Positions 4,905 to 62,947 are shown, numbered from the stretch's first letter. The stretch is DNA of 64,000 nt from Phoronis australis (GCA_002633005.1 NMRA01000425.1:12883-76882), one strand, 5' to 3'. Numbers and translations are program-made. Notes: a model not told the origin generated them from the sequence alone.

Positions 4905-5480
4905 CACGGATGGTGTGTAGCCTTTCTATGTGTCATCCGGGTATTATCTTTTATGGATGAGAATAGTATTTATGTTGAAGTTATGAGCTACAAAACAGTA
5001 AAATATGTTGTGTTTTTTGATTATATGTTTCGAGTGGAAAAGACGTGTCTGTGTAGTTGCCGTTTTGTAATTCAAAACTTTGCTGAATGTTGACATTGTC
5101 CAGTTCGATTTGGAAGCACACTGTAATTTATTGACCGATCTCTGTTACATACTTGCTACACTCTCTGCTTCACTGCTTGTTGTGGAACTGTCAACCGTCG
5201 TGAAATATCAAATAGCTTTTTAACTGGACATTTTTACCTGTAAAAGTACACATTTGCCCATTCATAGATGACTGAGCAATCTTGAAATTGCCTGAAACGT
5301 GAATTTTCTTTAAAAAATACCTTTCAAGCAGATCCTGGCAAATCTACTTCTTGACCATGCTAACGCAAGAGTTTTTCATTTTAAAAATTACAAAAATTTC
5401 TAAAAGAAATCATCAAATTCACTATTATCAGTGCATAATTGCCGTTGTTTTGTTGACATCAAAGGTCAAAATCACATTTT
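4905..5480. repeat. Shared downstream block of the duplicated gene unit (also at about 23570-24140 and 61420-61990)
   Basis: Collinear diverged sequence from 'ctatgtgtcatccggg' to 'gttgacatcaaa' occurs 3' of copies A, B and F. Confidence 0.8.
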
Positions 5481-6532
5481 CCATATAAAGGAAACGTGCT
5501 ACGTTTATATTTTGCAATTGACCAAGCGTAAGCTCCGCCTCCTTGCGTAATGTCGACTAACAAACAATAAGTTTTACCCGGCAACGTGTAGGCGGCTTGG
5601 AAACGAAGGTGTGTCAATAATGTTGCGTTCTAAATGGCCACTTAAGCCGTCACTCAAAATCCTGACGATTGGTCAATACCAAACAAGGTATTGCATTGGG
5701 TTGCCACTTTAATTCATGCCACAAAATGTCTCGTAACATTTTTAAACCACGTGGCCGCCACTTGCTTGAAGTGAGTCATTTTCAACTTGAGCATAACTTC
5801 CGGAAGAAAAAACAGTAGTAGATTTCTTATTTGAAAAATATTCATTTTTTGTTAGTGGTTGGAATTTTTGTGTCCCAAATTATTTACCCTCAAATAATTG
5901 ATTAACTAATTAACTTCCCTTTTGAATCACCATAAAGGTTTGACTGCCATTATACCCGTCGGTCGACAGTAAAACAAAAAAATAGAAAAATACTCGGACA
6001 TGACCGTGTAATATATGTGCATAATTTACGTCGCAAATCAACACTGGCACTTAAGAGAAGCCGGTGTCTCAAACTGGTAACAGTGTCAAAAATGGAAAGC
6101 ATTGAAGTGGCTCCTAAACACTCAAGTGTGTCATAGAATTACATTCAACTGGAGTCAATCCAGTCAACTTAGACATTTTGGGCACCAATAACGTTTTTAA
6201 AGCCTGCAATGCCCAGTAATGAAAATTGTGGTTGAAAATTGATACAGTATAAGACTTCACGAAGATTGAAAATTCCCTGGATGTTGTTTTTGGGAAATCA
6301 ATAGTATCGTTGATTTTCTCCGTAGAGAGAAACTTACCGGAAATAAAATGTTCATCTAAAATTAACCAATGAAAAATACAACACAATAATTATATTCAAG
6401 CATAAAAATTTATTAACTTTCAAGTTTGAATGGTCGTTTTAACGACCATAGTTAAAAATAGCATCTAAATTTAATCAGTGCTTTTCAATATTCTTAATTG
6501 CATGTAGCTTAAGCCGTGTCATGGGCACCGTG

Positions 6533-6630
6533 CTATTTTGACTTAAGTTCACATATGTAACGTGCTTTGTCGCTACAGCCCTTGATTTCCATGTTCTGGG
6601 TACTGGGATTGAAAACCTCGCATGCTGCAT
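6533..6630 (-). CDS. Copy A exon 3: C-half of C-type lectin fold
   Basis: ctctttcag acceptor, phase 1; (D)AACEVFNPSTQNMEIKGCSDKARYICELKSK* has the terminal C-x7-C/YICE pattern of CTL domains. Not in the ORF track. Confidence 0.72.
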
Positions 6631-7450
6631 CTGAAAGAGACAACAGTCACGTGGTATGAGTAATACAGTAACAGTCAGAAGATAGAGTTGCCCCTTACTT
6701 ACTTGAAAACACCGCAATTCATTGTTAGTGAAAGAAATTTGTTGTTTGAAATGATAAATATAATTAAAGAAACACAATTTTGGTGCGGGCTTAGTATTTT
6801 GTGTTTTGCCTCAAACAAAACTTCGAGTGCAATAGAGTGTCTGTGATTTTTGACCTCAGTGGCACTAATGTTAATTTCATTCAGACAGTTGCATGTACTT
6901 GGCACATGCAGGGAGACAGGTTCCAACTTCTTCGGAAACGATCAAAATCAAATCAGTCGACATACCATTTGACTGGGGTTTGTAGGGTTTATGCGTCCCC
7001 CATTTTTCGTCAGAAATGTGTGATCCCCTTACATCTAAACGCGATCCGGCACCAGTAAAATACGGAACATGAAGTTCATTACAGAATCAATTATTTATAC
7101 GCCAGGTTCTCAAAAACCATAAACGCATGACTGCTATGTAAGTTGATGTACACTTCACGTGTCTCATAAACGAGGATTTTGAACGTGAAGTTAATTCCAC
7201 AACGCAGTGGTAATGTATAGTGAACAATTTAGCAATTTGTAATCAGTACAGAGGGAACTTCTTGTCCAATGACTACACTTAAAAGATACAACTAAACGTA
7301 CATGATCCGTTTATTTAAAAACACAGCTTTATTTTAAATGAACAATACTACTACAGTTTGTTACACAGTGTTCATATTTAAATATTCAGCAACAAGGCCG
7401 ACAATCTATAGGAGTCAAATTTTGAAACGAGGAAAATAGTAAATTCTTAC

Positions 7451-7984
7451 CAACAACGCTCCACACCTCAACGTCGGTCCATTTAATTTCCTTTCCACAG
7501 CCCGCGAGTGTGCCGCTGTAGGTGGATTTACTGCAGTAGCCGTTAGACGGGAAGTACTTGTTGGAGCTGTCATACGAGATGCTACCACTGAAGAACTTCA
7601 GGTCGTAACCCCCGCCAAATGCTGGACCATGCTTGTACTCATCGTACATACCGTACACTTGATATCCGCTCTTCAGGCGGTAACTGGCCGATGTACATCC
7701 TTGTCTACACAGCTGAAACACGAATGTGTTGTTGTCGTACTTGTAAAAATCGACACTTGTCCAGGAGAGAGAGGTATAACCACCGAACGTGGTTCCGCTC
7801 GTTGAATCTTTCCCAATAGAGATGGTTGGGCCCTTGTTGTTGCATCTGCTGTGAAATACTGAAGCGTTCATTCCATCACGTGATGCCCGGTACAGGAGCT
7901 TGAATGTCTTTCCCGGGAACCATTCTCTCAGCAAAGCTGCGTGGGCTTTAGTTAACAGGCTTGAACAAAGAATGGCTCCCATGT
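7451..7984 (-). CDS. Copy A exon 2: TLDc domain
   Basis: LLYRASRDG...FHSRCNNKGPT...FGGYTS.SW...FVF...GPAFGGGYDL...DVEVW motifs. tttcag acceptor and G|GTAAGA donor; 534 nt, phase 1-1. Confidence 0.88.
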
Positions 7985-8394
7985 CTGAAATTCAAACGTA
8001 TCTTAGGTGTATCATTCGTGTTCAGTCCAAAGTGATAGTGCAATTTTCGCTATTGGAATTATATCTTAACAACCAAAATGGTAGTACGCGAAGTATTAGT
8101 TTACACCATTTTTGTGAAATGAACAGCCAAAAACGGTTCCACAATTAAACGTGAAACCTGAGGAGATTATTCCTCAACGAAACGAACGTAAGTAAAAATG
8201 TTACGCTTAAAAACAACAGTTACTTGTCTGAATGAAGCCTAAAATAGCATAGTGTATACAGCTAGTTGAAAGATGATGGGATTTTGAACTAAGCACATGT
8301 GTTAACTAGGTGGCCATGCATCTTCTGGAGTCGAATATTTCTTTAACTAGAATGCTTCTCAAAATTTGACAATGAACGCCATTGGCATTAATAC

Positions 8395-8902
8395 CTTTTC
8401 CCATATCTTTACTTTCAGCCCATATGGTGTCGCCAATTTTCAACGATTCTTGACCAAGGAGAGATCTCAAGCGGTGAGAGTCCATAGAGACTAAATGAGA
8501 ATTATCTTCAAGGCATTTTCGTCTCGCTGTTTCCCAATTCACTGAATCGTTGCTCAGTTTGAAACAGGAATGTCCAAAGTAACGATATTGACTCGGGCAG
8601 TATTGTTTACATAGATTGCGTTCGAGTGAAGACGACGACATTTCGCGCTGGAGTATAACTTCCTGAAGTAATTCGGTAGCATATGGAAAAGTATTAAGGA
8701 AGTTTTCAAGTTCCGTGTGAAAATGATTCACGATTTTTAGAACGGCCGATTGGAAATTCCGATTGTTTTTTTCTTCCTCTTTCAGTAAAGAGATGACGGA
8801 GTCTTCGATAACACATCCCTTCTCCACAGGCGAAGCCGCTTGGAGACACGTGACTTCATGACACAGCACAACGATCGTAAGTAGGAGATTAGCTCTGGAC
8901 AT
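8395..8902 (-). CDS. CTL/TLDc gene copy A exon 1: signal peptide, one coiled-coil unit, N-half of C-type lectin fold
   Basis: MSRANLLLTIVVLCHEVTCLQA hydrophobic leader; YCPSQYRYFGHSCFKLSNDSVNWETARRKCLEDNSHLVS...IWAESKDMGK; AAG|GTATTA phase-1 donor. Length 508 nt = 3n+1. Confidence 0.75.
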
Positions 8903-9699
8903 TTTGCTTACAAGTATAGGCCTATCTAACGAACATGTATGAGGAGACGTTTCAGTACAACACTTAGGAGCAGCAAATGACTTCAACCTTAGATCATCAT
9001 TCGAGCTTGTGAAAATGATGCAATAGTAACACACTTTTATAAGTTTCTGATTAGTACACCATCTCGTAATAAGGAGATGTTTTTTACTTTGGACGGATGC
9101 ATTGAGATTAGATAAATTCATGAACAATGTGAAGTGTTTGGCTGCCAAATACAGCTGTAGGCATACACGCATGTTTGATGATATATATGCAAGCAAACCA
9201 ATGAGGAAAGGGATGTTAACAGATACGCCTGATCTATGAAGATATCCCCGCACCTCCAAGTAAGTCACATTGTGGTGTCGACTAACATCGGGATGCTGAT
9301 TTCCATATTCCATCTGACTGCAGAGGATTCTGAAAGGAGTCCTGGCATTTCGTAAAGAAGCCCAACGTAAACGCATGCGTGCGATGTGACACGTATGTTT
9401 AACGCATTCATACTTAATGGTTGCCTCGATAACTGTGTAAGAATGATAAAAGAGTGCCTTGGAACAGTAAAGATACTCATGAAAACATGGGAATCAAAAA
9501 TGCAAAGCAAACAACGTGTTAGCTGAACATACGTGAACACATGTATGTAAAACTTATTTTAAAGGCGTGAGAACCAGCACGGCATTCTTGATTACAACAT
9601 CATGAGGCCAAAATTGAACTATTTTAAAAATATAACACGAACAAAATGTTTTAAAACCATGTTTTTCGTCTGTGCTATATTTTTGCGCAAGTAAGACGT

Positions 9700-11258
9700 T
9701 TACTACGCAAGCCAACACCTGCGTGTGATTACCAAATGCCACCTGACTAGAACGACGTCTTTCGTGGAAATGCAATTGTTGGAAGTGTATAAACTGCATG
9801 CTTATGAAATGGACAATATTACAAAGAAGACTACGGATAGCCATAAAATGAGTAAAGTTTAAAACACCATAATTTGTTAAATTGATAAGAATCAACCAAG
9901 AAAAAGTTATTATTAGTTTAATTAATTCAAATTGTTATGGACTTTCAACATGGCGGCTTGTCCTGAGACGTGTTTGTGAACACTGCTGTCATTTTATCCT
10001 CGAAGCCTGTATTGAAAAACCAAACATTGAAAGTACCCCAGCTGTATCAAGCAAAAGTGCACCTGCAGCAACCAACGCAAGCAATAGAGGGCGCCGTACA
10101 TAGAGGAGTCAGTCTAGTGAGAAGTTTAAAGTTGCCATTATTAGATATATGCGCTAGGAAGATGTTTAAAGATTTTCTGGATGAATTAAAAGGTTCGTAA
10201 AATCTTCAATACCCTCAAGCTCAAGTTTCACAAAGATTCAACGTGTCCAGCAAGAACTAGTCCCTCAGAAACAAGCAGATGAATCACTGGAGAAAGAGCT
10301 TGACCACTTGGTTCAGTACCATCGGCGAAATTCTTTCGTGGTAAGCAGTATCCCTGAAACAGGTGACATTATTTTAGCACGTGCTAGTACGAAGGGATCC
10401 AATGTTACCCAGGCAATCAAGGTACTAACAAGGAGTGGACATCATGGCAAAATTTACGAATTATTAGCCTATGCTCATGCCAACTTTATATTATTCTGCC
10501 ATAGAACGCGAAAAACAAGACTAAGTTGCATTCTCATGATGCCAAAGCACTTTCGTATGGAGGCCCATTAATTAGTGCCAGGAAAGGTAAAACTGGAATC
10601 TGCTAATGTATAATACCGATTGTCAATCTTTTAATACAGATTGGCAATCTGTCGTACGGATTGGCAATATGTTAATACGGATTGCCAATATGTTAATACG
10701 GATTGCCAATATGTTAATACGGATTGTTGATCCGTTAATACAGATTGTCAATCTGTTGTTTTGAATTGTCAATCTGGAAATTACGGCAATCTGTTGGTAA
10801 GAAATGGTAATCAATTGGCTACGACCAGTGGCTCATACAGGAAGCATGGAACTGGAAGTGCCGTCAATCGACATCTGAAAAATTTGTTGAACTAGTCCGG
10901 AATTTGACTACTGAGCACTGCACGATGCTTTAGGGACTAAGTCGGTATTCGTACCACATTTTTATACCAGGATCTAATACGTATGCTGTGTCCTGCATCC
11001 CAGTACTAATAGAACGTGTATGCATTTTCTCCAAACTGCTTCCTAGGGGGAGCTTTTGGACATGGACGTGCGTCCAAGGTTGTAACAACAATGAAAAGGT
11101 AGACGAAGAAGTAACACAGCAAACTACATTATGTGCCTGCCACACATATCATTGCCATTTAGTTCGAGTAAAATTGAAATTTGAGAACACAAAAATTTAA
11201 TGCATTTTCACTACGATTTATGAAGATTTCATACTAGTCATCACTGGAAGGGGTTCTT
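9700..11258. repeat. Near-identical duplicated block 1 (second copy 15767-17279)
   Basis: Direct sequence match and duplicated ORFs in the track (9882/15949, 10308/16375). The second copy begins right after an N at 15766. Contains a LINE ORF1-like remnant (ELDHLVQYHRRNS..VSSIPE). Confidence 0.92.
10615..10790. repeat. 21-bp minisatellite (acggattgccaatatgttaat)
   Basis: Tandem units are visible; the duplicate at about 16675-16810 has two fewer units. Confidence 0.85.
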
Positions 11259-11816
11259 TCATCAATCTATTTTTATTCAAGATTTTGTGGGAATGCACGC
11301 AAGTTACATCTACGCAAATGTCTACTAGTGGAAAGTGGAATGTAGATGCCAGGCAAATAGTTTAAATTCACGACCGTAACCAGCTCATAGGCTGGAGCCA
11401 GACGCTGGACCGAAATAATCCACGAATCACAACGGTATAAATCTTTCATAATTTTGGAACAGACAAAACAGAACAAGTATTATTTACCAGAAATAAAAAA
11501 ATCCAGTTAGCATGACAGTAATTAGATATTATCGTTCCTGACAAACGCAAGTCGACCAATGAAATCAGTTACCGCAATTCGAAACTTGGCTTAATTTGAC
11601 AGCCAGGGTAAAGAATTGCAGTTCGAGACAGATATTACTCGACACAGATGGTTAGAAAATCAAATCGTGATTTAATAAAGGCTGAAATCAGAACTGTCCA
11701 AAGACTGAGTAGGCTCCGATTTGGCTTCAATCGCCGAAGACGCCGGTGCGAAACGGTTAAGTTCGTACGACCTCAGAATACGAAAATCTGCCGATATGGC
11801 GAGGTCATTACCATTA

Positions 11817-13458
11817 CGATATCTTACTAGTAGGCCTATTACAGTGTATTTGTCTGGTGTTTAGTCAGGAACAATGCACAGTCTACGTTAATGTCTCTAT
11901 TGAGTACATTTAAAAAGTTGCAGTAATTAAGATCACTCGATGTCGATTAAGAATTGAATAGTCGGACTCCTGATTAGTTATGATGGTGTTTTCGGTTTTG
12001 CAAGTTTTTAACATTTTGCTATGTTATGCACAATTTTATTAGTGTTAAATACAATAAAAGAACACTATAAATTCAATAGTTTTACTTTTACTGACAATAC
12101 GATGCACCGTTTATCGTATTGTGATGTTAATTATAATACCCGGCCTTGATTCGATTGCAACATTCCTGAAGTAGTTTAGTAAATGTCGGTTGTTTGTGTG
12201 TCTGTTGACATGTATTTCTGGCCGTGTTCGATTTTAATTCAGTCATTGCATTTGATCAATGAAATGAAATGGAGAAACGAGACGAGAACCATTACTTACC
12301 GTCTCACAGAGCTATGGTTCCATTCACAAAAATTTATGTAAACTCTCAGTGACTTGTCGCGTTGGATTAGGGACCCCTGTTGCCACCTGGTGGTGTTCAT
12401 ATGTACTTCCAGTTCAAAGTAGGGACTTAAAGGACTTGCAGAGTGTGCACGTTATATTGTATTCTTGTGTTATGACACAGTATGAAGAGCAAACACAATG
12501 GCAGTAATGCTCGCGTAAGTTGGTTCAACCACAACGAGATATGTCATCCTTCATGTACTAACCCCAATTTGGACCTGTCTGAAGGGCTAAATTCTTTATG
12601 TAGGAAAACCGCACTTTGGCAGACGGACCTTTGTCCGAGTTAAGCCAAAATGCAACTGATCCATGTCGAACTTACCACGAACTTTGTATTGAGGATACTG
12701 CAGGCGCAGCTTATCTTTCATAATGATATAGTCCTCTAATTCAGTTAGCAGTCATATTTGGGCTCCGTTTCATCCGGAATTAACAGTGAAATTGTTCCCT
12801 AGATGACGTTGGTGGGTATATGAAAACATTAAGAACAGACACTAGTCTAGATCCACCAGTGTGTCCAGTTTTGAATTGCACGTAGTAATTTGTTAAACTT
12901 ACCGTAAATACAAATGGTTTGTTTTGTTTTGCAAACATTTTCATGTCCGGTCCACACGCCACCTGTGGCAACATCACGTGTCCACGCCGGTTCAAAATTT
13001 ACATATTCAAATTGTTATGCGTGAAAATTGAATAAGTTCTATCCATTTAATTTCCTAATTCTCATAGATGCAATAACGTGTTGACTTCTGTATCGTGATC
13101 ATAAAATAAAAGCTTGCTTTTGCACCGAAGATTACTGGACAGGGTTGTGTGAGAGATTGTATAAAAGACATGGCAGGAGTTTTCGTCAAATGCACATACA
13201 AATTCCACTGTCCGTGATGTCAACTTCTCTGCTTGCCCCAAATACTGTCATGTGAGACTAAAGGTGCGTGTTTTATGTTTTGTTGCAATACTTTTGCTCG
13301 GAAAGGAAATTGGGGTAACTTTGGATTGTAGCCTACGGAATATGGCGGTTATGAAATTGATCAGTTTATTTTACGTCATGTGAAAAATCTGAGGGCCATG
13401 TGAAGTGTCAGTTATGTGACGTGTTTTAGGGCTCACATTTAAAATCTGCTCAAATTGT
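11817..13458. repeat. Near-identical duplicated block 2 (second copy about 18751-20353)
   Basis: Direct match from 'cgatatcttactagt' to 'ctgctcaaattgt'. Confidence 0.92.
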
Positions 13459-14734
13459 GGTTCTCTGCCACTAAAACAGAAGTGTATCTATTCAGCAGGT
13501 ATTTTACGGTTTGTTCGTAAAGATTTTGAATTTCTGTTGTTGTCAAAGTATTATTGCTTTAGTTTTAAATTTCCAAAAAAGATCTGTCAACTGCTCGTCA
13601 CTTCGTCGATTTTTCTCAAAAACACGGCAAAGCACGTCTCGCTATATATGGCATGGCATGACATAGACTTAGCACATTTCCCTTATATGGAAACTATGAC
13701 CTTTGAAATTTCATGTACACAAAACAATGGTGATTTCAAACCGCAACTAGTCCGACGTCTTTGAGCGCAAGCGCGCATACATGTACATATTGTTTTAGGC
13801 GGAGAATTTAAACATAGTTGAGATGAAAGAGTTTTTGTTTCCTCTGTGTTTTAAAAATAGCGGATCCAACGACTGTGTCTAGAAATTCTTGCGATATCTA
13901 AGTGAACAATTCTTACTTTAGCATCCACCATGATCTGTTTAAAAGTTGTTTTTTTTTAGTTTTTCGCGTTCCGTGCCTCTTTGAATCAAACCAGTTCTAC
14001 GGAGTTGTCGGTAAACATATCTACATGTACATTAGAATAATGATCAGTTTCTCCAAGTAAAGCAGCTAAAAACACTGTGTTCCGTCGAAGATGCAAACTA
14101 AATGATTCGCAACACTAACCGCAATAAAATTGAGATCAACCTGTTCTACTCAGATGAGAAATAATTTTTGTTTTGGAATTTTTTAGTTTGCAAGGAACTG
14201 ACAATTCGTTACTCTTTGAGACGGATGCTCGGCGCATCAAGTGACACTGTAACTAGCCATTTTGTAAAACCTAGTCTCGAGCAATAACGTTCAATTTAAC
14301 AAAGGAAATTTAGATTCTCAGTTTCATAAGAGTATGTGGTCTATATAAAAAGTTGATTATAGTATTGTAAGGCGAGTCTGTTGTTGCTTTAAATTTTGGA
14401 AAACATCTTACTGTGTGTACAATCGCCTGTAATTGCTAAGTTTGGGTAACTCGACGGCTGTGAAAAAGGAGCCGCTCACACCGTGACTTGTAAAATTCCA
14501 TTACTTAGTTAGGCAAAGATAAATCAGTAGTTTTAACAAAGCAATGTTGACGGGATGGGCGATGTCTGAAGCTGCTGGTCACGCAATTAGCGTCTGGTGG
14601 CATCACTAAAACACTCATTAAACTTGAAGGTATTGCAACCCTTTTAAAATATGAACTAAACAAGTGTTTACTTACGTAGTGTTTCATATACACTAATAAA
14701 GTTCCTTGGCTCATTGTCCAGAGGGACATTTGCA

Positions 14735-21830: not shown

Positions 21831-21859
21831 TTCTAAAGAACTGGCAGTTTTAAAATTGT

Positions 21860-24260: not shown

Positions 24261-25116
24261 TGATTTTGACCGCAGTGAGAGATTTTCCCGGAATAGAATG
24301 TTCAGCTTCTAAATTTAACCAATGAAAAATTCATCACAAGAATTATATTCACGCAGAAAACTTAAATATATTTAAGTTTTCAAATGTGAATGGTATTTAA
24401 CAGCACATAAATTTCTTGCTTTTTAATTCTTAATTGCGTGTAGTTTAAGCCGTGTCGTGGGCGCCGTATTATTCTCACTGATGTTCACAGATGTAACGTG
24501 CTTTGTCGCTGCATTCCTTGCTTTGCAGGTTCTGTGTACTGGGATTGAAAACCTCGCATGCCGCATCTGAAAAAGTGGCAACAATCACGTGGTACATGTA
24601 TGAGTAATACAGTAACAATGAGAAGTTTGAGTTGCCGATTACTTACATGTACTTGAATGCACCACAACTCTTGGTGTTGGTGNNNNNNNNNNNNTGATTT
24701 TGACCGCAGTGAGAGATTTTCCCGGAATAAAATGTTCAGCTTCTAAATTTAACCAATGAAAAATTCATCACAAGAATTATATTCACGCAGAAAACTTAAA
24801 TATATTTAAGTTTTCAAATGTGAATGGTATTTAACAGCACATAAATTTCTTGCTTTTTAATTCTTAATTGCGTGTAGTTTAAGCCGTGTCGTGGGTGCCG
24901 TATTATTCTCACTGATTTTCACAGATGTAACGTGCTTTGTCGCTGCATTCCTTGCTTTGCAGGTTCTGTGTACTGGGATTGAAAACCTCGCATGCCGCAT
25001 CTGAAAAAGTGGCAACAATCACGTGGTACATGTATGAGTAATACAGTAACAGTCAGAAGTTTGAGTTGCCGATTAGTTACATGTACTTGAATGCACCACA
25101 ACTCTTGGTGTTGGTG
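24261..25116. repeat. 422-bp direct duplication around an N gap, including copy B exon 3
   Basis: 24261-24682 and 24695-25116 are near-identical and separated by 12 Ns. Confidence 0.9.
24909..25000 (-). CDS. Copy B exon 3: CTL C-half (duplicate at 24475-24566)
   Basis: tttttcag acceptor; (D)AACEVFNPSTQNLQSKECSDKARYICENQ*. Confidence 0.72.
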
Positions 25117-25838: not shown

Positions 25839-26366
25839 CAACAACATTCCACACCTCAACATCGGTCCATTTAACATTGCGTCCACAGCCGAGTTCTCCA
25901 TTGTAGGTAGATTTACTGCATCTGCCGTTAGACGGGAAATACTTGTTGCTACTGTCATACGAGTGGCTACCATAGAAGAACAACAGGTCGATACCTCCGC
26001 CAAAGAATGGGCCATGTTTGTAATGATCGCGCAGGGCGTTTTCTCGAAACCAGTACTGGCTGTACCTGACTGATGTGCATCCTTGTCTGCACAGCCGAAA
26101 CACGAAAGCGTTGCTGTCCTTCTTGTAGTCGTTGACACTTGCCCAGGAGACAGAGGCATAACCACCGAAAGTGGTTCCGCTCGTTGAATCTTTCCCAATA
26201 GAGATGGTTGGGCCCTTATTGTTGCATCTGCTGTGAAATACTGAAGGCTTCATACCGTCACGTGTTGCCCGGTACAGGAGCTTGAATGTCTTTCCCGGGA
26301 ACCATTCTCTCAGTAAAGCTACGTGGTCTGTAGTCAATAAGTTTGAACTAAGAATGGCTCCCATGC
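25839..26366 (-). CDS. Copy B exon 2: TLDc domain
   Basis: Open TLDc frame; ttttag acceptor and G|GTAAGA donor; 528 nt, phase 1-1. Confidence 0.88.
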
Positions 26367-26755: not shown

Positions 26756-27545
26756 CTTTTCCCGTATCTTTCCCACCAGCCCATATGATGTCGTCTGTTT
26801 TCAACGATTCTTGACCAAGGAGAGATCTCAAGCCATGAGAATCCATTGAAACTACGTGAGAATTGTCTTCAAGGCATTTTCTTATCGCGGTTTCCCAATC
26901 CACTGATGTGTTGCTCAGTTTGAAACACGAATGTCCAAAGTAACGATATTGACTTGAGCAGTACAATTTGCTTAAAATGCGTTCAAAGGAGATCGATGAC
27001 ATTTCTCGTTGACTTATCACTTCCTGTTGTAACTCGGTAGCATTAAATGAAATGGACTTTCGTAGTTTCTTGTGAGAGCGATTCATAGTTCTTAAAATCG
27101 TTGAATGAAATTCCCGATTTTTACGTCCTTCTTCAATGCTTTTGTTTTGCATTCCTTCAAGCTTCGTTTGAAAGTGAGTTATGCTTTTTAGAACAGCCGC
27201 CTGAAAAATTCGGTCCTTAAGTCTTTCTGCGTTGCTACTGTTTCGCATTTCTTCAAGCTCTGTTTGAAAGCAACCCAATGCTTTTAGAATGGTCGATTGA
27301 AAATCCTGGTTCTTAAGTTGCTCTTCGTTGCTACTGTTTCGCATTTCTTCATGCTTAGGTTGAAAGTGAGTTACGTTCTTTCGAACAGTCGATTGAAAAT
27401 CCCGGTTGCTTTTTTCTTCGTTTTCCAGCAAAGAGATGACAGAATCTTCGGCAACAGACCTCTTCGTGGCAGCCGAAATCGCCTGGAGGGATGCAACTAC
27501 ATGGCACAGCACAACGATGACTACCAGGAGATTAGCGTAGAACAT
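26756..27545 (-). CDS. CTL/TLDc gene copy B exon 1: signal peptide, four coiled-coil units, CTL N-half
   Basis: MFYANLLVVIVVLCHVVASLQA; four FQS/FQA/FHS repeat units; YCSSQYRYFGHSCFKLS..VDWETAIRKC..IIWAGGKDTGK; AAG|GTATTA donor. Length 790 nt = 3n+1. Confidence 0.75.
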
Positions 27546-48845: not shown

Positions 48846-48931
48846 TCAAAGTTCACAGATGTAGCGACCTACATCAGTACACGGTCTCCCCTCCATTGTT
48901 TGGTTACCAGGATTGAAAGCGAGGCAGGGAT
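48846..48931 (-). CDS. Copy D exon 3: CTL C-half (divergent)
   Basis: ctcttttcag acceptor, phase 1; (D)PCLAFNPGNQTMEGRPCTDVGRYICEL*. All three Cys, FNP and RYICE are kept despite heavy divergence. Confidence 0.72.
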
Positions 48932-50121: not shown

Positions 50122-50655
50122 CAGCTACTTTCCACACCTCAACGTCAGTCCATTTAACGTTGCTTCCACAGTAGAAATGACCGTCGTAGGTGGTTTTACC
50201 GGACAAGCAGCAGCCGTTAGACGGGAAGTACTTGTTGGAGCTGTCATACGAGTAGCTACCAGAGAAGAACAACAAGGAGTGATCCAGACCAAAAGATGGA
50301 CCATAGTTGTTCTTGTCGTACAGAGCGTATTCGTAATACCAGAACGGGACGTACTTGACTGTTGTGCATCCTTGTCTACACAGCCGAAATATGAATGCGT
50401 TGTTGTCGGGCTTGTACATATTGGCACTTGTCCAGGAGACAGAGGCATACCCACCGAACGTGGTTCCACTCGTTGAATCTTTCCCAATAGACATGGTTGG
50501 GCCTTTATTGTTGCATCTTCTGTGAAATACTGAAGCGTTCATTCCGTCACGTGATGCTCGGTACAGAAGCTTGAATCCCTTTCCTGGGAACCATTGTCTC
50601 AGCAAAGCTACATGGTCTGTAGTCAAGAGGTTTGAACTGAGAATGCCCTCCCTGT
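50122..50655 (-). CDS. Copy D exon 2: TLDc domain
   Basis: ttttag acceptor, then AC AGG GAG with no ATG at the exon start, so it behaves as an internal exon. G|GTATGT donor; 534 nt. Confidence 0.88.
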
Positions 50656-51067
50656 CTAAAATTCAAACATATGCAGTCAAAGTGTGTCATCCATATTTTC
50701 ACACAGAGCACTGCGATTGTCGCTGTTGGAATCATAACCAAACAACACAAAGGCGGTACCTACGATATTAGTTTACACACAGCCAAAGAATCGGTCACAA
50801 CGAAACGTAAAACCTGAGTAGTTTATTCATTAACTTATCAAACGTAACTGAAAATGCCGCTAGAAAAACAACAGACTGTTAACACTTACTTGTACGAACA
50901 AATAAATTAAGTAAAGGTATTCAGTTAATCTATGCTAAAGGTGATGAGATTTCAAAATAATCACAAGTGTAAGGTGGTCATGGATCTTTCAGACAGACAG
51001 ACAGACAGGTTTGTTCACCTAAAATGCTATTGAAAAATTGACATTTCCCGCTATTGGCATTTAATAC

Positions 51068-51770
51068 CTTTTCCCGTCTCTTTTCCATCAGCCCATATGA
51101 TGTCGCCTTTTTTAAAAGATTCTTGACCAAGGAGAGACCTCAAACGATGAGAGTCCATAGAGACTATGTGAGAATTCTCTTCTAGACATTTTCTCCGTGC
51201 AGTTTCCCAATCCACTGATACGTTGCTCAGTTTAAAACACGAATGTCCAAAGTAACGATATTGGCTTGGGCAGTACAGTTTACTTAGAATGCGTTCGAAG
51301 GAGGACGATGACATTTCTTGTTGACGTATCACTTCCTGTAGTAACTCGGTTATATTAAGTGAAAACTCATTGTGAAGGTCTTTAATCTCCGTGTGAAAGC
51401 GATTCGTGATTCTTAGAATCGTCGACTTAAAATCCCAGTTCTTAAGACTTTCTTCACCGCTTTTGTTTCGCATTCCTTCAAGCTCCGTTTGAATCCGCGT
51501 CACGGTTTTCAGAATGGTCGATTGAAAATCCCGGTTCTTCAGTTTTTCTTCAATGCTATTGTTTCGCATTTCTTCAAGATTCGTTTGAAAGCGAGTCATG
51601 GTTTTCAGAACAGTCGATTGGAAATTTCGGTTGTTTTTTTCTTCCTGTTTCAGTAAAGAGATGACGGATTCTTCGAGAACAGATCTCTTTACGACAGAAG
51701 AAACCTTCTGGAGAAACGCGACTTGATGACACAGCACAACGATGCCTACTAGGAGGTTAGCGTTGAACAT
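51068..51770 (-). CDS. CTL/TLDc gene copy D exon 1: signal peptide, three coiled-coil units, CTL N-half
   Basis: MFNANLLVGIVVLCHQVAFL; YCPSQYRYFGHSCFKLSNVSVDWETARRKC...IIWADGKETGK; AAG|GTATTA donor. Length 703 nt = 3n+1. Confidence 0.75.
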
Positions 51771-53140: not shown

Positions 53141-53199
53141 ATGTTTGATAAGTCATTGTTCTTGTTTCATTTATCTTACACGACAGCGTTTATGATTTT

Positions 53200-53560
53200 T
53201 TAAAATTTATTTGCCTTTGATGACTGATGTATAGTCGAAGTACCGCTACTGTTTTATTATGATATGTTTTGTACAGAGTTTTATTATATATTTACTCATA
53301 TATATGTGTTCGTGATGCCACTTACACTGGGCGATCTATTATATCAACTACCATCTGATGAAAGACACTTGTGTAGACACTACGAAAGTTTGTTGTACAA
53401 ACTAATTAAAGCAAAGAACAGCTTACATTTCAATGCAACATGTATAAAAGAAGGTCTGTTACCCAAATATTTATATATATATATATATATATGTGTGTAT
53501 GAATATATATTTATATATAATATGTGTGTGCGCGCGCGTGTGTGAGTGTGTGTGTGTCTT
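53200..53560 (+). mobile_element. Penelope-like (Naiad-type) ORF N-terminal fragment ending in a (TA)n/(TG)n microsatellite
   Basis: MPLTLGDLLYQLPSDERHLCRHYESLLYKLIKAKNSLHFNATCIKEGLLPKY runs directly into TA repeats. Confidence 0.5.
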
Positions 53561-53603
53561 GCCGCATACAACATGTCCAGTACAATATAGTATCTGTGAT
53601 TAT

Positions 53604-55105: not shown

Positions 55106-57688
55106 TCCTGCAGATGGGTTCATCGACAACACATGTACAGCTAGGCCGTTTCACAACACCAACGACCAACAAATGTTCTCAACTGTACTACATCACTCGA
55201 GATTTTCAAAATGAAAGGAACCAGCATGTAACATCCTTTCATAAGATGAAAGCTTGTGAGATCACCTTCAAGGTGATCTTTTTCTTTTGTCGGAAACATT
55301 GAGATTAGATAAATTCATGAACAGTGCCATATGTTTACATTCAAGATACAGCTGCAGGCATGCGCACACGTATGTCTACCCGTATATAGACATACCTGAG
55401 AGGAGTAACCACTGATTTTTTCATGAAAATACGTGCGTTTCTAAAGCAGCATTCCTAGTAACATGAGTCGCAGAGCTTTTAACTGAATTCCTGCTCCACG
55501 ACGGTGTCCTTATCTTCTCCAAATATGTTAAATTGAAATGAATAACACAGCTAAAACAAAGATAACTCGAAATTTCCGTAGATAGTCTTCGTTATTTGAT
55601 TGTAATCCAACGCACAAATGGCGTAGTGTGAATTTCTCATTTTATAGTCCTGTAACTTAAATTTTAATTAAATTATAGCAGCCAACGAAATGCGTCTTGT
55701 TGCGAAATTCTTTAGAAGTGACAATAACAAAAGCTACTTCAACTTCCATTCCACTCGAAAATTGATTTAAATATTTGAAACTTTTATATGTAAAATGCTC
55801 ATCATGATCTGAGTATTAATATTTTACTGCTTCAGTAATTGGCAAGGCAGGTCAACAGTTCCAACATCCGGACATGACAGACTCCAATCAAGGTGTTTAG
55901 GAATATTTGTGCTACTTTTCCAATCATAGAATTGCTCTTTGAGAAAATGCCCCTTTCCATCGATTGCCTGCAGGCAAGGTTTGATACTTGGTGTATGTCG
56001 ATTCCCTTATACCAGCAGGTTTGACGATGACAATATTTATCATGTCATATCACTGTTGTAAGTCACGGGAAAACAACACACGAAGATCTTGATAGAAGAC
56101 TTAGAAACTAGACTGGTACGTGATATCTTGCATGAATCGTAGGCGAAGATAGGCAAGATTATTTCAGACAACACCGGTTAGATCGCATGAATTGCGCCAA
56201 AACATGTCAGTAAACGACGGAGTCGTTTTTACTGTGCATTTATAGATTTTCGTAAGCTTTCAATGAAATCTTTCACGTGCAGTACACCACACAATGGTGG
56301 TATGCATCCTCAAAAATTACGATGCCTGTTGTTCATTTTCGTTACTTTAAGAGGTATTAAACGCCATACCTCCTCGGGGTCTTCTCACTAGCACGGAATA
56401 TAACTGCTCTTGTGTTATTATGATGGGACTCTGCTGATGTTTCAATTCCACCTTTAGGACAAGACAGAGATGTGTGATCAATCTCTTTTTTCTTTATGAA
56501 TTCAAAAAAATTGTGAAAAAACTAAAAACAAGCAAAGTAAAAAGGAATCCTGTTTTAATGAAACTGCTCGAGGTATGAACTCATATGAGGAGTTGTCATA
56601 GTAATTAAGCTGAAATGTCATCAATCTACTATGACTAGAAGAAGCTTCTTTTCAATATGAATATTGAGGAATGGGTGTAAATTTGAAATTACTAAGACGT
56701 GGTGTTTTGTTCAGGACTTTTAAGGTTAATGTGTTATGGAGAAATCTAGAAAATCGTCCTCTCCGGATGATCATCAATGTTGCCTAACCCCATTCATAAA
56801 AAGCATTCAGATATGATATTTCACTCATTAGATATTTATATGTGTGTCTGTCTGCCTGTCTGTTTGTCTGTCTGTCTGTCTGTGTGTGCGTGCGTGTGTG
56901 TTGTGTGTGTCTTTGTCAGTATTTGGACTTTACAATAACTTAATTCTCCTTTTTCAACATAATGGTATTGCCTACTATTTCTTTCCTAGCTATTTTTCGG
57001 CCATGTTAGTGTACAAAATGATCTCGAATGCATCTCCCCTACAAGTGTATGGACAACCATTGAAAAAACACTTTTTGGACTCGCTATTGATCAGTCACAA
57101 AAAAAACTTGTATTGAATGAGCTGCTCTAAGGTGTGTACCGTTCGCTGGCTCTGTTTCGATAGGGTTTTGAGCTTCCTAGTGAGCCTTTCATTCACACTG
57201 TTGCTTGTACGCCCCTCTTCCCGCCGTCACGTGTATTTCCCTGTATATTTCGCTACGTATATGTTCATTCCGCTTATTGCCTGATTGTGAGATACGCAGT
57301 GTCTAAATATAGTTAGTGTTTCAATTTATTTGTTTGTTATGTTTCTCGGTGTTTTGTTATATAGCTGCACACCTGAAGAAAGAAGATTGTTCCGACACTA
57401 CGAGAGACTTAGTGTCAAGCATTCGAACAAAAAATTTAGACGTGTCTTCAACGAAGTCAGTGCGAATTAAAGAAAACAAAGACTTAAACTTACCGCAAAA
57501 TTTCCCATGTAAGGTATGTCAGCACAGGTGAAATAATGCATGTTCTGAGAACACTGAAAAATGCAAAGGAATATAAGACTTTGAGGCTACAACGTTTCTT
57601 CACAGGACCAGGCGTTGTCATATATTTTCTGCCAGCCATGATCTATACTATCACAATAAAAAAGTATCGATTAACATTAGCATTTCAT

Positions 57689-59931
57689 TTCGTCCAATTT
57701 CACTATTGAATATTACTTACAAACTTTTGTCTGGTTGTATTGCTAGACGCCTAAAAGGCGTCCTCGTACCCCTTATTCACGAGAACCAACAAGGTTTCAT
57801 GAAAGGCAGATATATTGGGGAAAACATAAGAATTTTATATGATGTAATTCAATTCTTAGACTGTAAACCCTTTCCCGGACTCCTGTTAATGATCGATTTT
57901 GAAAAAGCTTTCGACTCGGTCTCCTGGTCTTTCATCCTCAAGGCATTATCATACTTTAACTTTGGCCCAAGGTTCATTGACACGGTCAAAACACTCTACA
58001 ACAAATCTTGTCTCTGTGTTCTCCAACATGGATTTTTCTCTGAATTTTTTGAAATGGGGAGAGGCTGTCGTCAAGGAGACCCCATTTCTCCTTACCTTTT
58101 TTTATTATGTGTAGAAATATTGGGTAATTTAATTCGTCGGGATGGTGGCATCACTGGTGTCAGGATAGGTGTTTCTGAGTTTAAATTGATCCAGTACGCT
58201 GACGACACTTGTTTGATTTTGGACGGTTCTGAGTTATCTCTAAGATCATCTTTGAATTTAATTGACCAATTTGCGAAATTTTCTGGTTTGAAGCCAAACA
58301 TCGAGAAAACAAGATGTGTTTGGATTGGTTCAAAAAAAGACTCTCACGAAAAACTTTGTGTCAATGAGAACCTGTTATGGACCAACAAACCTTTCATGTT
58401 TTTGGGAATTAACTTCTCCACTGATTATAATACAATGCCGGGTATTAACTATAGTTGCAGGTTTTTGGAAATTAAGAAAATGGTGGGCTCTTGGTCAAGA
58501 CGAATTCTTACTGTTTTAGGTAAAATAACCGTGGTTAAGACACTTTTATTGCCCAAGATTGTTCATTTGCTTCAATCCCTCCCTAGCCCCTCCATTGACA
58601 TGATTCAAGAATTAGAGCGAGTTTTTTTTGGCTTCATTTGGAATGGGAAGAATGATAGAGTTAACAGAAATGAAATTGTACAAAATCAGGATCATGGTGG
58701 TCTAAAAATGGTTCATGTTAGTTTTTTTATTAAGTCTTTGAAAATATCGTGGCTTCGTAAACTATTCACCTCAAATACCATACGTGACCTTGCAGAGGCA
58801 GTTTTGGGTTGTAAAGTTGATAACTTTTTTAAAATGGGAGACGCTTTCCTTAAAAAATTAGCTGAAGGCACCGACAATATGTTCTGGAAGGAAGTTTTAA
58901 GCGATGTTGTGCTCCTGTTTCAAATGTGTGACAAAAATGAAAATATTATTTACTCTCCCCTGTGGTATAATTCAAAGATTAAAGTTGGTAAAAAATCTAT
59001 TTTCTACAAGACCTGGTATGAAAGGGGAATCTATCGTGTGTGTGATTTGTTTAATGCTGAAGGTTCTTTTATGTCATACGAACAACTCTGTAATAGTTAT
59101 AACTTTCAACCTCCAATACTAGAATTCTATGGATTAAGAAGTGCAACCTTTGCAGCGTACAGGGGTCTTAAGAATAGACAAGACAACATCTTTTTACCAA
59201 ATTTTCCAAATTATATGTATAAAATTTTACATAATAAATCACAAGCGGTAAATATTTATGACACCTTAGTACAGTCACTTCAGACAGCTTGTAAGTATAA
59301 AAACAAGTGGTCATCTGAGATAGATATAAACGGTGTTATAAATAATGTAAATTTTAGTGACTCTGATTCATGGTGGAGAAAAGTAAATAAACTCCCCTTC
59401 AATTGTACAAAAGATACAAAATTGCGTTGGTTTCAATACCGCTTAATTCACAGAATATTGCCAACTAATAGTTATTTACATAAAATTAAAATAAAAACAA
59501 GTGATTTATGCTCTTTCTGTGGTGAACACAGTGAAACTTTTCTCCATCTGTTTTGGGAATGTCGTCTTGTCTCCGTTTTCTGGCTCCTGTTTACTGACTG
59601 GTTAAAACAAACATATCATGTAAATTTTCATGTGGACAAGATAGCAGTGTTTTTTGGTTTTTTGGGAAACATTCAGTCGGAAAATTGTAATATTAATTTG
59701 CTGATCATGCTAGCAAAAAATTACATATTTAGCCAAAAGTTTGTTAAAAAAAATCTTAATTTCCAATTGTTCATAAACTTTATTAAATTACATCCTGAAG
59801 GAAATACGGTACTTGTTGAGTAATGATTTAATGTTATCTTTTGTAAACGATGTATAGTATATTGTTTGATTCGACTTGTAATTATCATGCTAGAGCAAAA
59901 TAAAAAACTTCAAGTGAAAAAAAAAAAAAAA
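57689..59931 (+). mobile_element. 5'-truncated L1/Tx1-type LINE with uninterrupted RT ORF, poly(A) tail and 16-bp TSD
   Basis: FRPISLLN..., IDFEKAFD, GCRQGDPISPYLF, QYADD and a C-terminal CSFC...HLFWEC. Poly(A) at 59917-59931; TSD aacattagcatttcat at 57673-57688 and 59932-59947. Confidence 0.95.
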
Positions 59932-60639
59932 AACATTAGCATTTCATGAAATTTCAGAGCAGAACCTACTGCAAAGTTCACAACAGAAAGCACAAGGGAG
60001 AATAGTGTTTTTTTTTCAAAACAAATGAAATTGTATGGCTTATTTTTTATTGAGTGTGTTAGGCATGACAGAATACAGTGAATTCAGAAGAACTACTCAT
60101 AAGACTTGCTGATTTCACAAATTTACTCATTTCAGTCTTGTACATTGAGAAATTGTGAGCCAGGTAGTTTATTTACGTTAGAGGCGCATCTAACGATGTC
60201 ATCACCTGAACGTGAAATTAATTCTCCAGGACAGAACAGTTACCAAATTCTAAATAACAAATTACCAGTTGTTATTTATTACTAGGGCATGAATTCTTAA
60301 AACGAATTGCAACTGATGTAGCTGATCACGTGTGAGAGCGATGGAAGTGGGCTTTGGAAATATGAGATGGCAATATGGGTAGTGTGGGAAGAAAGGGAAG
60401 CTTATTGGTGCCAATTCAATGGATACTTACCCTCAAAAATACTTAGTTTGAATTTGCGATGTAACACTATATCTACACTTTTTACAAAAGTATACAGAAT
60501 GACTGATATTAGTGCTAGCTAAACTGCATATTATTCAATAAACGAAAGGAAGACTTCGACACAAAATTTATTCCAGTAGACGCCGTTCGTAATTGTGTTT
60601 ATTACGGTTCTGGAATAGATTTGATTACATGTCTGCTAA

Positions 60640-61140
60640 TCGTTTCACAAAGCAAACAATGTACTGGGACCTCACGAACAAGAAGTACAGGTGGTCAAAA
60701 ACTGTTTTTCAAATTTTACTGAGGTTTATCACATTGAAGATTTTATCAAAAGTGAGCTTGTGATCTGGAAAATGCCAAAATGATTTTTCCGAGTTTATTT
60801 AAGAATGAGCATTTCTAGAGAAAGGAATCCCTGTTTCCTCAATTTACACGTGAAGTGTGAAAGTGGAAACCCGCCATTTTGCTATTATTACTCCGGTTGG
60901 GGGACGTTTGTGTGATTTTTGTATTGCCCCATACTGTAGAAAATGAAATACATTTTCTTTGCCTATGCGATCTCTACACTGATCTCAGACTCGGGTTATT
61001 TACAGAGGTCAAGTTGGTCTACCCTCATTTGGTGAGCTAGAAATTCTGAACCAGTTTGTTTTCTTGATGACTAACACCACTGTGAGTTATCAGTTTTATC
61101 TATGATGTATTTTTCAGGCGAAAAATTGTTATTTACATCT
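60640..61140 (+). mobile_element. Degenerate LINE 3' fragment
   Basis: VENEIHFLCLCDLYTDLR zinc-knuckle remnant. Confidence 0.5.
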
Positions 61141-62059
61141 TAATTAATAATGACTGAGAAGTTTGGTCTGGTTTTCTTTTTGTCACTGTATACGTGTATG
61201 CGTTGCTTATGTTAATTACGTTAAATGAGAGTTCAGGCTCCGAACAAACTTCCAAATATTGATATCTACAAAACAGTCTTGGTTTTAAATTCAACTTTGT
61301 AGTATGGCGGGAACAAGCTGAAGTTACAACTACTTAATAAAACTCCTAACCCTCCGTGACGATTGTCAACGTCAAAACTTGTTTGTATTGTTAATTGGAA
61401 ATTTCCGATCGTTGGGTTCCTGGCGAAAGTTTGTGGCCTCGCTATGTGTCATCCGGGGTATTATCGTTTTACGGGCGAAAAGGCCATTCATGTTGAATGA
61501 GACTTAAATTTAGATAGCCTTAAAGTTATGTAGCTTTGAATGGAGCTACAAAGCAACAAAAGTCGTTGTTTTTGTTGTGATTATGCGGGTTCGAATCGAA
61601 AAGACGTGTCTATCTAGTCGCAGTTCTGTAATTCAAAACTTCGCTGAATGTTGATATTTTCCAGTTTGATTTGAAACGTACTGCAATTTATTGACGGCTT
61701 TGTGTTACATACTTACTGCACTCTCTGCCTCACCGCCTGTTGTGAAACTGTCAACCGTCGCGAAGCCGTTTATCAAATAGAGTTTTAACTGGACACTTTT
61801 ACCTCTAAAAGTACACGTTTCTCCAGTAGGAGATGACTGAGCAATCTTAATGCAGATCCTGGTTAATCTACTTCTTGAGCATGCTGACGTGAGAGTTTGT
61901 TATATCAATCATTACAAAATTTTCCTTTCAAATCGTCATATTCACTATTTTTATTGCATATTTGCCATTGTGTTGTTGACATCAAACGCTAAAGGAAATG
62001 TACATGTACTACTACGTCTAAACATTCAAGTTTGTCATAGAATTGCAATGAATTAAAGT

Positions 62060-62947
62060 CAGCCCAAGCAACTTGGACTTTGCGGGCACCGATTACGCTT
62101 TTGAAGCTGTAATGGGTAGAAATGAAAATTGCAGTTGTAAATTTATACAATAATGTTTTTGATAAGATTTCACAAAGGTTGAAAATTCATTGAATGCTGT
62201 TTTGGGGGGAATCAATGGTACCGTCGATTTTGACAGTAGTGAAAGATTTTCCAGGAATAGAATGTTCAGCTTCAAAAATTAACCAATAAAATGACAAAAC
62301 ATGAATTGTATTCAAGCAGAAGTTTATTTAAGTTTTCACATTTGAATGATCTTTAATAGTACATAAATTTCGTTAGTGTTTTTTTCAACTTTTAATTGCG
62401 TGCAGTTTAAGCCATGTCTTGGGCACCGTTTTATTTCGACTGAAAGTTCACAGATGTAACGTGCTTTGTCGTTGCATCTCTTGGTTTGCAGGTTCTGGGT
62501 ACTGGGATTGACAATCACGGATGCGCTTTCATTTGAAAAAGAGGCAAAATCCACATGCTTGAGTAATACAATAACACTCAGAAGTTTTAATTGCCGATTA
62601 CTTACCTGAAATTACTTCAACTCTTGGTGTTGGGGAAAGAAATTTGTTGTTTGACATTAAAATATATTTAAAATCACAAAATTTTGGTTCTGGAGTAGTA
62701 TTTGTTTTGCCTCGAACAACGTTCTAAGTGCATTAGAGTACCGGTAGGCTATCTGTGATTATTTGCCTGAGTAGCAGTAATGTAAATTTTGTCCAGACAG
62801 TTAATTGACATATTTAAGGAGAAAGGGTTCCACTTCTTCGGAAATGATCAAAACAAAACCAGCGGACCTGCCGTTTCACTGAGATTTGTTGTTGTTACGC
62901 GATCATCTACATTTACAAAATTGTGATTCGTCCCCCATTTTTTGTCA
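62060..62947 (-). pseudogene. CTL/TLDc family copy F (intron 2 and exon 3 only within this window)
   Basis: NESASVIVNPSTQNLQTKRCNDKARYICEL; acceptor AG>AA and first Cys lost; cut at about 62948 by a transposon fragment. Confidence 0.7.

Follow-up and report, generated by a model that had tools for sequence, protein, structure and literature searches.

Organization of the array

We analysed a 64,000-nucleotide stretch of the Phoronis australis genome (GCA_002633005.1, NMRA01000425.1:12883-76882), called the window below, with all positions counted from its first letter. The window is 64 kb of AT-rich DNA (GC content 0.33 to 0.49) that holds spliced genes and many mobile-element remains. Its main feature is an array of six related gene copies, A to F, all on the minus strand, of which A, B and D are intact and C, E and F are broken. 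The intact genes appear to encode secreted proteins in which a complete TLDc domain is nested inside a C-type lectin-like domain (CTLD), and we describe here the evidence for this layout and for the history of the array.

DNA self-comparison placed copy A at 4985-9174, copy B at 23515-27862, copy D at 48846-52188 (a self-match at 50105-52188 together with an exon 3 at 48846-48931), pseudogene C at 29607-31996 (a self-match at 31465-31996 and a relic at 29607-29699), pseudogene E at 53591-55522 and relic F at 61363-62955. When the window's open reading frames (ORFs) were compared with the window itself by tblastn, the TLDc exon matched at four places on the minus strand (7386-7991, 25822-26373, 50120-50662 and 53872-54105) and coding exon 1 at five (8351-8908, 26709-27569, 31699-31902, 51051-51812 and 54487-55129), with E-values from 1e-19 to 1e-171. 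Exon 3 was recovered by tblastn at five places and in one assembly duplicate. The three-exon frames of A, B and D run uninterrupted for 379, 469 and 440 residues, respectively, and all six of their introns are bounded by GT..AG. An initial annotation of this sequence had proposed six same-strand copies, the state of each copy, duplication units larger than the gene and a tandem family with live and dead members; the tblastn matches, the blastn self-comparison and the gene models agree with it on every one of these points, three of the six copies being intact and three decayed.

Gene A is transcribed from three coding exons

Three stranded RNA-seq runs (X2 to X4) and an older contig set (X1), all under the same species label, were mapped on positions 1-9600, which cover gene A and its plus-strand neighbour SNUPN. 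Reads of SNUPN had their first mate on the minus strand and reads of gene A were oriented oppositely; thus, the A transcripts come from the minus strand. Coding exon 1 (8395..8902, minus strand) encodes a signal-peptide-like start, one 32-residue neck unit and the N-terminal half of the CTLD (N-half) with cysteines C0, C0′ and C1, and ends in a phase-1 donor. Coding exon 2 (7451..7984, minus strand) holds the complete TLDc in 178 codons between two phase-1 introns. Exon 3 (6395..6630, minus strand) holds the predicted C-terminal strands of the CTLD (C-half) with cysteines C2, C3 and C4 in its coding part (6539-6630), the stop codon (6536-6538) and the 3′ untranslated region (UTR), with a poly(A) site near 6395. 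Its peptide has 32 residues, three cysteines and the terminal residues R-Y-I-C-E.

Both introns of gene A were found spliced in RNA. The minus-strand joint 8395/7984 was carried by three reads and an X1 contig, and the joint 7451/6630 by 7 and 10 reads in X2 and X3 and an X1 contig; both joints read CT..AC on the plus strand. An X1 contig of 1191 nt (k-mer depth 305) covers 8776-8395, 7984-7451 and 6630-6395 and has a T-run as its loose end at 6395. Because this contig spans the three exons and ends in a T-run, the A mRNA is spliced and polyadenylated. Therefore, each gene has three coding exons rather than two, a structure that the RNA reads prove for A. An isoform of A that skips exon 2, which would be in frame and encode a compact CTLD, was not seen, the joint 8395/6630 being absent from the listed RNA joints.

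Other RNA signals were also observed over gene A. Alternative donors at 6966 and 6855, together with a pile-up of X3 reads that comes to an end at 7117, point to a read-through or internally started A isoform, which would lack the CTLD C-half; the joint 6855/6630 was carried by 7 and 10 reads in X2 and X3, and read depth persisted through 7041-7360. Antisense, plus-strand spliced reads crossed GT..AG joints at 7771/8417 (four reads) and 8472/8785 (six reads) in X2. Upstream of its ATG, the exon-1 frame of A stays open for 197 codons (8903-9493, minus strand), compared to two codons in B and 14 in D; this upstream frame has little RNA coverage and is probably open by chance.

The TLDc exon

Exon 2 was recognized by the Pfam TLD family (PF07534) in every copy that retains it, with E-values of 1.6e-26 in A, 1.6e-21 in B, 6.8e-21 in D and 4.7e-11 in the fragment of E (93.7, 77.4, 75.4 and 43.4 bits, respectively, against a cut-off of 24.5). 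Folded alone by AlphaFold2 with 34 aligned sequences, it gave a mean predicted local distance difference test score (pLDDT) of 94.2 and a predicted template modelling score (pTM) of 0.91. A Foldseek search with this model returned 16 matches at E ≤ 0.001, and all 16 are TLDc domains, including zebrafish OXR2 (4ACJ), NCOA7, mEAK7, Skywalker/TBC1D24, Oxr1 and Rtc5p (query-normalized TM-scores 0.59-0.74, E-values 2.5e-8 to 8e-5, identities 17-23%). By sequence, the solved relatives of the exon were only four mEAK-7 chains (E 4e-6). These results show that exon 2 alone encodes the full TLDc fold.

The coding exons 1 of A, B and D are 508, 790 and 703 nt long, each leaving a remainder of 1 when divided by three, and their exons 2 (534, 528 and 534 nt) are multiples of three. 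The TLDc exon is therefore symmetrical with phase 1-1, which is classically taken as the mark of exon insertion. In the three-exon models, only 28-32 residues follow the TLDc. Pfam found TLD alone in A, B and D, and the GTPase part that would follow the TLDc in an IFI44-like protein is absent.

A probable CTLD in two halves

The last 70 residues of exon 1 had 153 PDB matches at E ≤ 10 by phmmer, and all 60 of those listed are CTLDs. The matches include PLA2R (E 2e-10), single-domain chains from 3e-5 (convulxin) to 1e-2, and the natural killer (NK) receptor proteins NKG2-D, NKG2-A and KLRC1. The alignment covers query residues 2-67, with residues 7-71 of the DC-SIGN carbohydrate-recognition domain (CRD) set against query residues 3-67, and the cysteines C0, C0′ and C1 and the helix W-x-x-A...C can be aligned to those of solved CTLDs. 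From these alignments, we identify the end of exon 1 as the N-terminal half of a CTLD.

Comparisons of exon 3 point to the other half of the same domain. The exon-3 peptide of A matched four PDB chains, all four of them CTLD C-termini (CD94 three times and KLRD1 once); the peptide of D matched three, all of them the CD94 C-terminus; and a profile of the five copies had CTLD C-termini as three of its four matches (a tetranectin-like chain and CD94 twice), in each case with weak E-values. The peptides align with CD94 residues 94-117 of 121, at the chain end, with three cysteines in register, and share a C-terminal motif of an aromatic residue followed by I/V-C-E/K. Based on this placement, exon 3 probably supplies the remaining strands of the CTLD, although the evidence for this C-half is weak compared to that for the N-half.

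Together, the two halves amount to about 97 residues compared to about 121 in the CD94 CTLD chain, and what they lack relative to CD94 is its loop region, which runs from strand 2 to the third-last cysteine. In the A, B and D models, there is no loop-region sequence between the N-half and cysteine C2; only the TLDc exon lies there. A true C-type lectin carries the EPN/QPD and WND motifs, which supply sugar and calcium ligands, in its loop. The long loop with such ligands, as used for Ca2+-dependent carbohydrate recognition, is absent from these proteins. We infer that the head is one CTLD interrupted by exon 2, with the TLDc predicted to sit at the usual site of the sugar-binding long loop. 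The lectin scaffold proposed in the initial annotation was thus retained, while the order that it gave, a lectin domain followed by a TLDc, was replaced once exon 3 was taken into account, since the TLDc then falls between two halves of one CTLD. The introns of A, B and D may lie at the conserved positions of three-exon vertebrate CTLDs.

Signal-like start and neck repeats

The N-terminus of each protein is short and hydrophobic, and is preceded in A by one charged residue. Its uninterrupted hydrophobic run of about nine residues is too short for a membrane span, which is why we interpret it as a cleaved signal; a cleaved signal peptide of about 20 residues is predicted, in keeping with the signal-peptide-like start previously annotated, here at the level of protein sequence. 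The start is followed by 32-residue neck units. A has a single unit, D has three and B has four, and Tandem Repeats Finder (TRF) reports those of B and D as arrays with a period of 96 nt. Each unit has one N-x-S/T site, and the A, B and D proteins have 3-7 such sites and 12-14 cysteines after the signal. The signal-like start, the N-x-S/T sites and the cysteines argue for the secretory pathway. Structure modelling only suggests that the neck repeats form a helical stalk.

Selection on the copies and their age

The exons of A, B and D are 81-86% identical, without frame-breaking gaps. Intron 1 in all pairs, and intron 2 between A and B, are 70-74% identical with 45-146 gap positions, and identity is down to 45-46% when intron 2 of D is compared with that of A or B. 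The ratio of nonsynonymous to synonymous divergence (dN/dS) among the three genes is 0.39-0.43 overall; it is 0.13-0.25 in the CTLD N-half compared to 0.47-0.75 in the TLDc. The coding sequence is under purifying selection, with the scaffold more constrained than the TLDc. With three constrained intact copies alongside three pseudogenes, the array has the make-up of a birth-and-death family.

Divergence within the TLDc is concentrated in a hypervariable patch of 21 residues (exon-2 residues 99-119), where 5-7 of 20 positions are identical between copies compared to 116-126 of 156 elsewhere in the domain. Exon 3 and its flank occur as two types, one shared by A, B and F (83-85% identical) and the other by C and D (60% identical), with 38-48% identity between types. 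Synonymous divergence among the copies ranges from 0.27 to 0.85 and their introns are 26-30% diverged; the copies are therefore old. The initial annotation had described the turnover of the family as rapid, and these values do not sustain that word: near-identical copies are absent save for two duplications that abut assembly gaps.

Genes B and D and the expression of the other copies

Gene B has its coding exon 1 at 26756..27545 (signal-peptide-like start, four neck units in a 96-nt array at 27143-27406, and CTLD N-half), its coding exon 2 at 25839..26366 (TLDc, recognized by Pfam TLD) and the coding part of its exon 3, found by tblastn and read as the CTLD C-half, at 24912..25000, all on the minus strand. 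Gene D, on the same strand, has its coding exon 1 at 51068..51770 (signal-peptide-like start, three neck units in a 96-nt array at 51415-51632, and CTLD N-half), its coding exon 2 at 50122..50655 (TLDc, frame intact) and the coding part of a diverged exon 3, likewise a putative CTLD C-half, at 48846..48931 (tblastn E 1e-6); this last exon was missing from the list in the initial annotation. The exon-3 homologues in B (25000-24912) and D (48931-48846) have the same acceptor phase as in A. A second copy of the B exon 3 lies at 24484-24566, within a 434-bp unit that TRF finds twice at 24261-25116 (98% identical) around the N run 24683-24694; the duplication that doubles this exon is probably an assembly artefact.

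Reads specific to gene B were plentiful. In X2 and X3, 135 and 96 reads, respectively, fit A only from 7752 upward, and their loose ends equal B at 26104-26133 exactly. B, or a copy identical to it at 26104-26133, is transcribed more strongly than A. The initial annotation had allowed that no copy might be expressed; both A and B are transcribed, as the spliced and polyadenylated A RNA and the B-specific reads demonstrate. Expression differs among the samples, with A found in X1, X2 and X3 and almost lacking from X4, and the two genes taken together present in X2, X3 and X1 and absent from X4.

Across 48700-63000, the four runs yielded no reads specific to D, E or F, and read depth was zero over exon 1 of D, exon 1 of E and the whole of F. 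Reads mapping to E carry the B signature. The few reads on D, from X2 and X3, fit only 50208-50250 and have flanks that match nowhere in the window, and 18 X4 reads fit A at 7451-7560 and then run into sequence absent from the window. Since the X4 reads leave A at 7451 and the match of the X2 and X3 reads to D is confined to 50208-50250, two or more additional related transcripts come from outside the window.

Broken copies and shared flanks

The three broken copies have decayed in different ways. E has frame-breaking deletions of 97, 23, 2 and 20 nt, altered intron-1 splice sites (donor GT>GC and acceptor AG>AA) and a TLDc truncated after about 53880, of which 53872-54105 remains; a self-search of the window found no exon 3 for it. 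C retains its first 68 codons (exon-1 relic, 31699-31902), an intron-1 relic (31465-31681) and an exon-3 relic (29607-29699), and has lost exon 2 and everything from the first neck unit to the middle of intron 1. Between its relics lies a plus-strand ORF (30467-31279) of Penelope-like, GIY-YIG appearance, without a significant Pfam match. F starts inside intron 2 and retains part of that intron, exon 3 (62444-62530) and the 3′ flank; its exon 3 has a changed acceptor (AG>AA) and its first cysteine replaced by serine.

The copies also share sequence beyond their exons. A minus-strand 3′ block is common to A (4985-6983), B (23515-25389) and F (61363-62955) at 72-78% identity by blastn. Within it, the downstream flank of A (4985..6394, minus strand) takes part in two alignments, 4985-5480 corresponding to 23684-24140 and 61543-61986, and 6114-6983 corresponding to 62018-62889. 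Upstream, A and B share collinear blocks (12334..14613 versus 28095-29504) in four blastn segments of 69-83% identity, among them 12334-12420 with 28095-28181 (82%), 12462-12547 with 28595-28679 (80%) and 14283-14519 with 29236-29463 (69%). C and E share a different upstream block (33518-34254 versus 55546-56251; blastn, 74% over 741 nt). All the shared flanks listed in the initial annotation were thus found by blastn, except that intron 2, coding exon 3 and the 3′ UTR make up the inner portion of the 3′ block, which had been taken for flank. The 3′ block also contains a high-copy repeat (5541-5591), about 50 nt of which are matched by dozens of reads per run with varied flanks, and a related piece lies inverted at 13663-13730.

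Neighbouring features

The array is preceded by the 3′ part of the gene for snurportin-1 (SNUPN; 1-4250, plus strand), with the Pfam family SPN1_m3Gcap_bd in the ORFs 1827-2138 and 3687-4082 and five GT..AG introns (90/641, 743/1884, 1983/2586, 2665/3360 and 3438/3778), each supported by 3-20 reads in each of three runs. A tandem repeat of about 6 kb (9700-15560 and 15767-21056, 90-95% identical) has its second copy starting directly after a single N at 15766, and may reflect the assembly or the two haplotypes instead of a true duplication.

Several mobile elements lie between the copies. A non-long-terminal-repeat retrotransposon (57577-59823, plus strand) has a 748-codon frame with RVT_1 (E 1e-32) and zf-RVT (3e-9); in every run it is covered by reads of both strands that vary at many positions, which indicates a multi-copy active family. 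A GC-rich block (36000-41100, GC content 0.45-0.49) contains long minus-strand ORFs of retroelement-like appearance without a Pfam match, and adjoins the remnant of a Harbinger-type DDE_Tnp_4 transposase (42645-42992, E 1.4e-10). The minus-strand ORF 21274-21849 resembles a Penelope-like GIY-YIG protein, with a Pfam GIY_YIG_2 match at E 0.085 only.

Interpretation and alternatives

We consider it probable that the copies form a partly decayed tandem family whose three-exon genes encode a secreted, neck-oligomerized protein, in which a complete TLDc replaces the ligand-binding long loop of a CTLD and likely serves as the binding head. Under this interpretation, the protein would enter the secretory pathway by its signal-like start, and its neck repeats, whose number differs among A, D and B, would form a glycosylated helical stalk that oligomerizes the heads and sets their reach. 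The CTLD core would be closed by three disulfides, with C1-C4 clamping the exon-1 and exon-3 parts around the base of the TLDc, so that the TLDc would project from the face where lectins bind sugar. The hypervariable patch may be where the paralogues differ in binding target; as they differ in stalk length and in one TLDc patch, they would differ in both reach and target. The layout could have originated by insertion of a TLDc exon into a CTLD gene or by replacement of its middle exon. By analogy with known recognition proteins, a role in extracellular recognition, possibly immune, is plausible.

Several observations weigh against this interpretation. The Pfam Lectin_C family (PF00059) missed its threshold, reaching 15.2 bits in one of the three N-halves against a cut-off of 22.6; this sub-threshold match covers profile positions 2-33 of 107, and a domain split by 178 residues cannot score as a single Pfam match. 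None of the five exon-3 peptides, which are too short for such a search, matched a Pfam family, and their PDB matches (E 0.1-2.3) include none that is significant singly. The model of B exon 1, in which residues 26-195 are drawn helical, has a pLDDT of 36.2 and is unusable. The joint 6966/6630 was carried by 47 reads in X2 and 43 in X3, more than the coding joint 7451/6630 (7 and 10). Many A transcripts of these runs may therefore continue past the exon-2 donor as far as a stop at 7386, and so be without the CTLD C-half. Gene D has an open frame and none of its own reads in the four runs, and its TLDc departs from the aligned TLDc sequences at two conserved motif positions, a G present in 29 of 34 being replaced by D and a D present in 30 of 34 by S. 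Finally, the solved TLDc proteins that matched are all intracellular, mostly in V-ATPase-bound entries, and an extracellular role for the domain is without precedent.

The layout could also be real while the protein does something else, as a secreted structural, reproductive, digestive, matrix or secretory-lumen product whose lectin-like necked form is incidental. The absence of the CTLD's sugar-binding loop agrees with such a function, and the sample-dependent expression of A and B would fit any tissue-restricted product; the main differences among the paralogues are neck length and a single surface patch of the head, a pattern expected of binding proteins, which tells weakly against it, and we regard this alternative as unlikely but worth keeping in view. 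A further account is that the cluster is in general decay, the frames of A, B and D being mere remnants and their transcripts either noise or regulatory RNA. It draws on the three dead copies out of six, on the changed conserved residues and lack of own reads of D, on a TLDc dN/dS that reaches 0.75 between A and D, and on RNA that in X2 and X3 comes mostly from read-through and alternative donors, with spliced antisense reads lying over A. Decay of this kind is difficult to reconcile with a scaffold dN/dS of 0.13-0.25, with the retention of all six splice-site pairs of A, B and D and with frames free of breaking gaps across a dS of 0.3-0.85. Moreover, the canonical A mRNA is among the deeper X1 contigs (305 compared to 25 for a piece of SNUPN, depth being a poor measure of expression), and general decay seems to us improbable.

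The last alternative, to which we give very little credence, is that a mobile element captured pieces of a gene and dispersed them as these units, which would then be no host gene family. Remains of mobile elements abound in the cluster, including the reverse transcriptase of a long interspersed element (57577-59823), the DDE_Tnp_4 remnant (42645-42992) and the Penelope-like ORFs, the duplication units exceed the gene, and the high-copy repeat at 5541-5591 lies within the 3′ block. Self-comparison of the window, however, found no terminal repeats bounding the units, whose extents differ; the exons are conserved above the introns, and the copies are in tandem on the same strand.

The interpretation of a secreted TLDc head on a CTLD scaffold matters because the biochemical job of the TLDc domain is unsettled, its studied members being intracellular and its solved complexes lying on the V-ATPase. 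If true, a secreted, disulfide-rich TLDc with a variable patch would mean that this fold is able to work in binding outside the cell, and the protein would offer a simple soluble subject in which to seek TLDc ligands. It would equally present a CTLD kept as a scaffold only, with a whole domain grafted at its sugar site by a mechanism still visible as a phase 1-1 exon. For comparative immunology, the array would, by analogy, be a candidate new family of necked multivalent recognition proteins. We put forward more tentatively, and with some doubt, the further proposal that these are the first extracellular TLDc and the first CTLD used as a pure disulfide-clamped socket, and that such patch-diversified, variable-neck proteins constitute a new class of soluble invertebrate recognition receptors.

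Comparison with known systems

Exon 1 of B, compared with protein libraries, yielded 729 candidates, none at E ≤ 0.001. For the TLDc exon, 178 relatives were compared, drawn from 31 longer proteins and the best 150 of 8915 library matches; neither the CTLD halves nor exon 1 found a match in these proteins (phmmer, E ≤ 10), a weak negative since the libraries may lack the lineage. All 30 of the Atlas feature matches were TLDc-only clusters, with the lineage perhaps not covered, and a search of the literature (titles and the starts of abstracts) found neither a TLDc-lectin protein nor a CTLD with an inserted domain. Both component domains are known, and their predicted nested arrangement appears to be without a described relative in the proteins and literature searched.

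The families of tandem, secreted recognition proteins provide a general parallel. FREP and C1qDC genes form tandem paralogues with live and dead members and encode secreted proteins with an oligomerizing stalk and a globular head. They have no sequence relation to the array, which showed no sign of immune expression, somatic diversification or fast turnover in the data analysed.

The TLDc itself shares its fold and Pfam family with mEAK-7/TLDC1, OXR1/OXR2, NCOA7, TBC1D24/Skywalker and the yeast proteins Oxr1 and Rtc5. Those proteins differ in being cytosolic, with complexes on the V-ATPase according to the entry titles, and none is secreted or has its domain nested in another. Among named proteins, the nearest to the TLDc exon is IFI44-like from Mytilus edulis (36% identity, E 7e-24), which is of the same TLDc sub-type as the other library matches. 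It ends in a P-loop domain and, unlike the proteins of the array, has neither a signal nor a neck nor a CTLD.

On the lectin side, the group V NK-receptor CTLDs (CD94/KLRD1 and NKG2) are the best and only PDB matches of the A and D exon-3 peptides, with weak E-values. These domains do not bind sugar and have a short loop region, the brevity of the loops being described in a part of PMC514892. They differ from the proteins of the array in being type II membrane proteins with a contiguous domain, where here we have a putative interrupted CTLD behind a cleaved-signal-like start.

The necked C-type lectins, namely the collectins, tetranectin, DC-SIGN/DC-SIGNR and CD23, are comparable in overall design. 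The proteins of the array depart from them in having no collagen domain and no transmembrane anchor, and in the apparent replacement of the long loop by a 178-residue TLDc. What they share is an N-terminal targeting segment, a repeat neck (its helix being predicted here) and a C-terminal CTLD head, with the DC-SIGN CRD aligning to the N-half and a tetranectin-like chain matching the C-half profile. The necks of collectins and DC-SIGN oligomerize the heads and set their reach, and in necked lectins, as in A, D and B with their one, three and four units, the number of neck repeats varies among paralogues.

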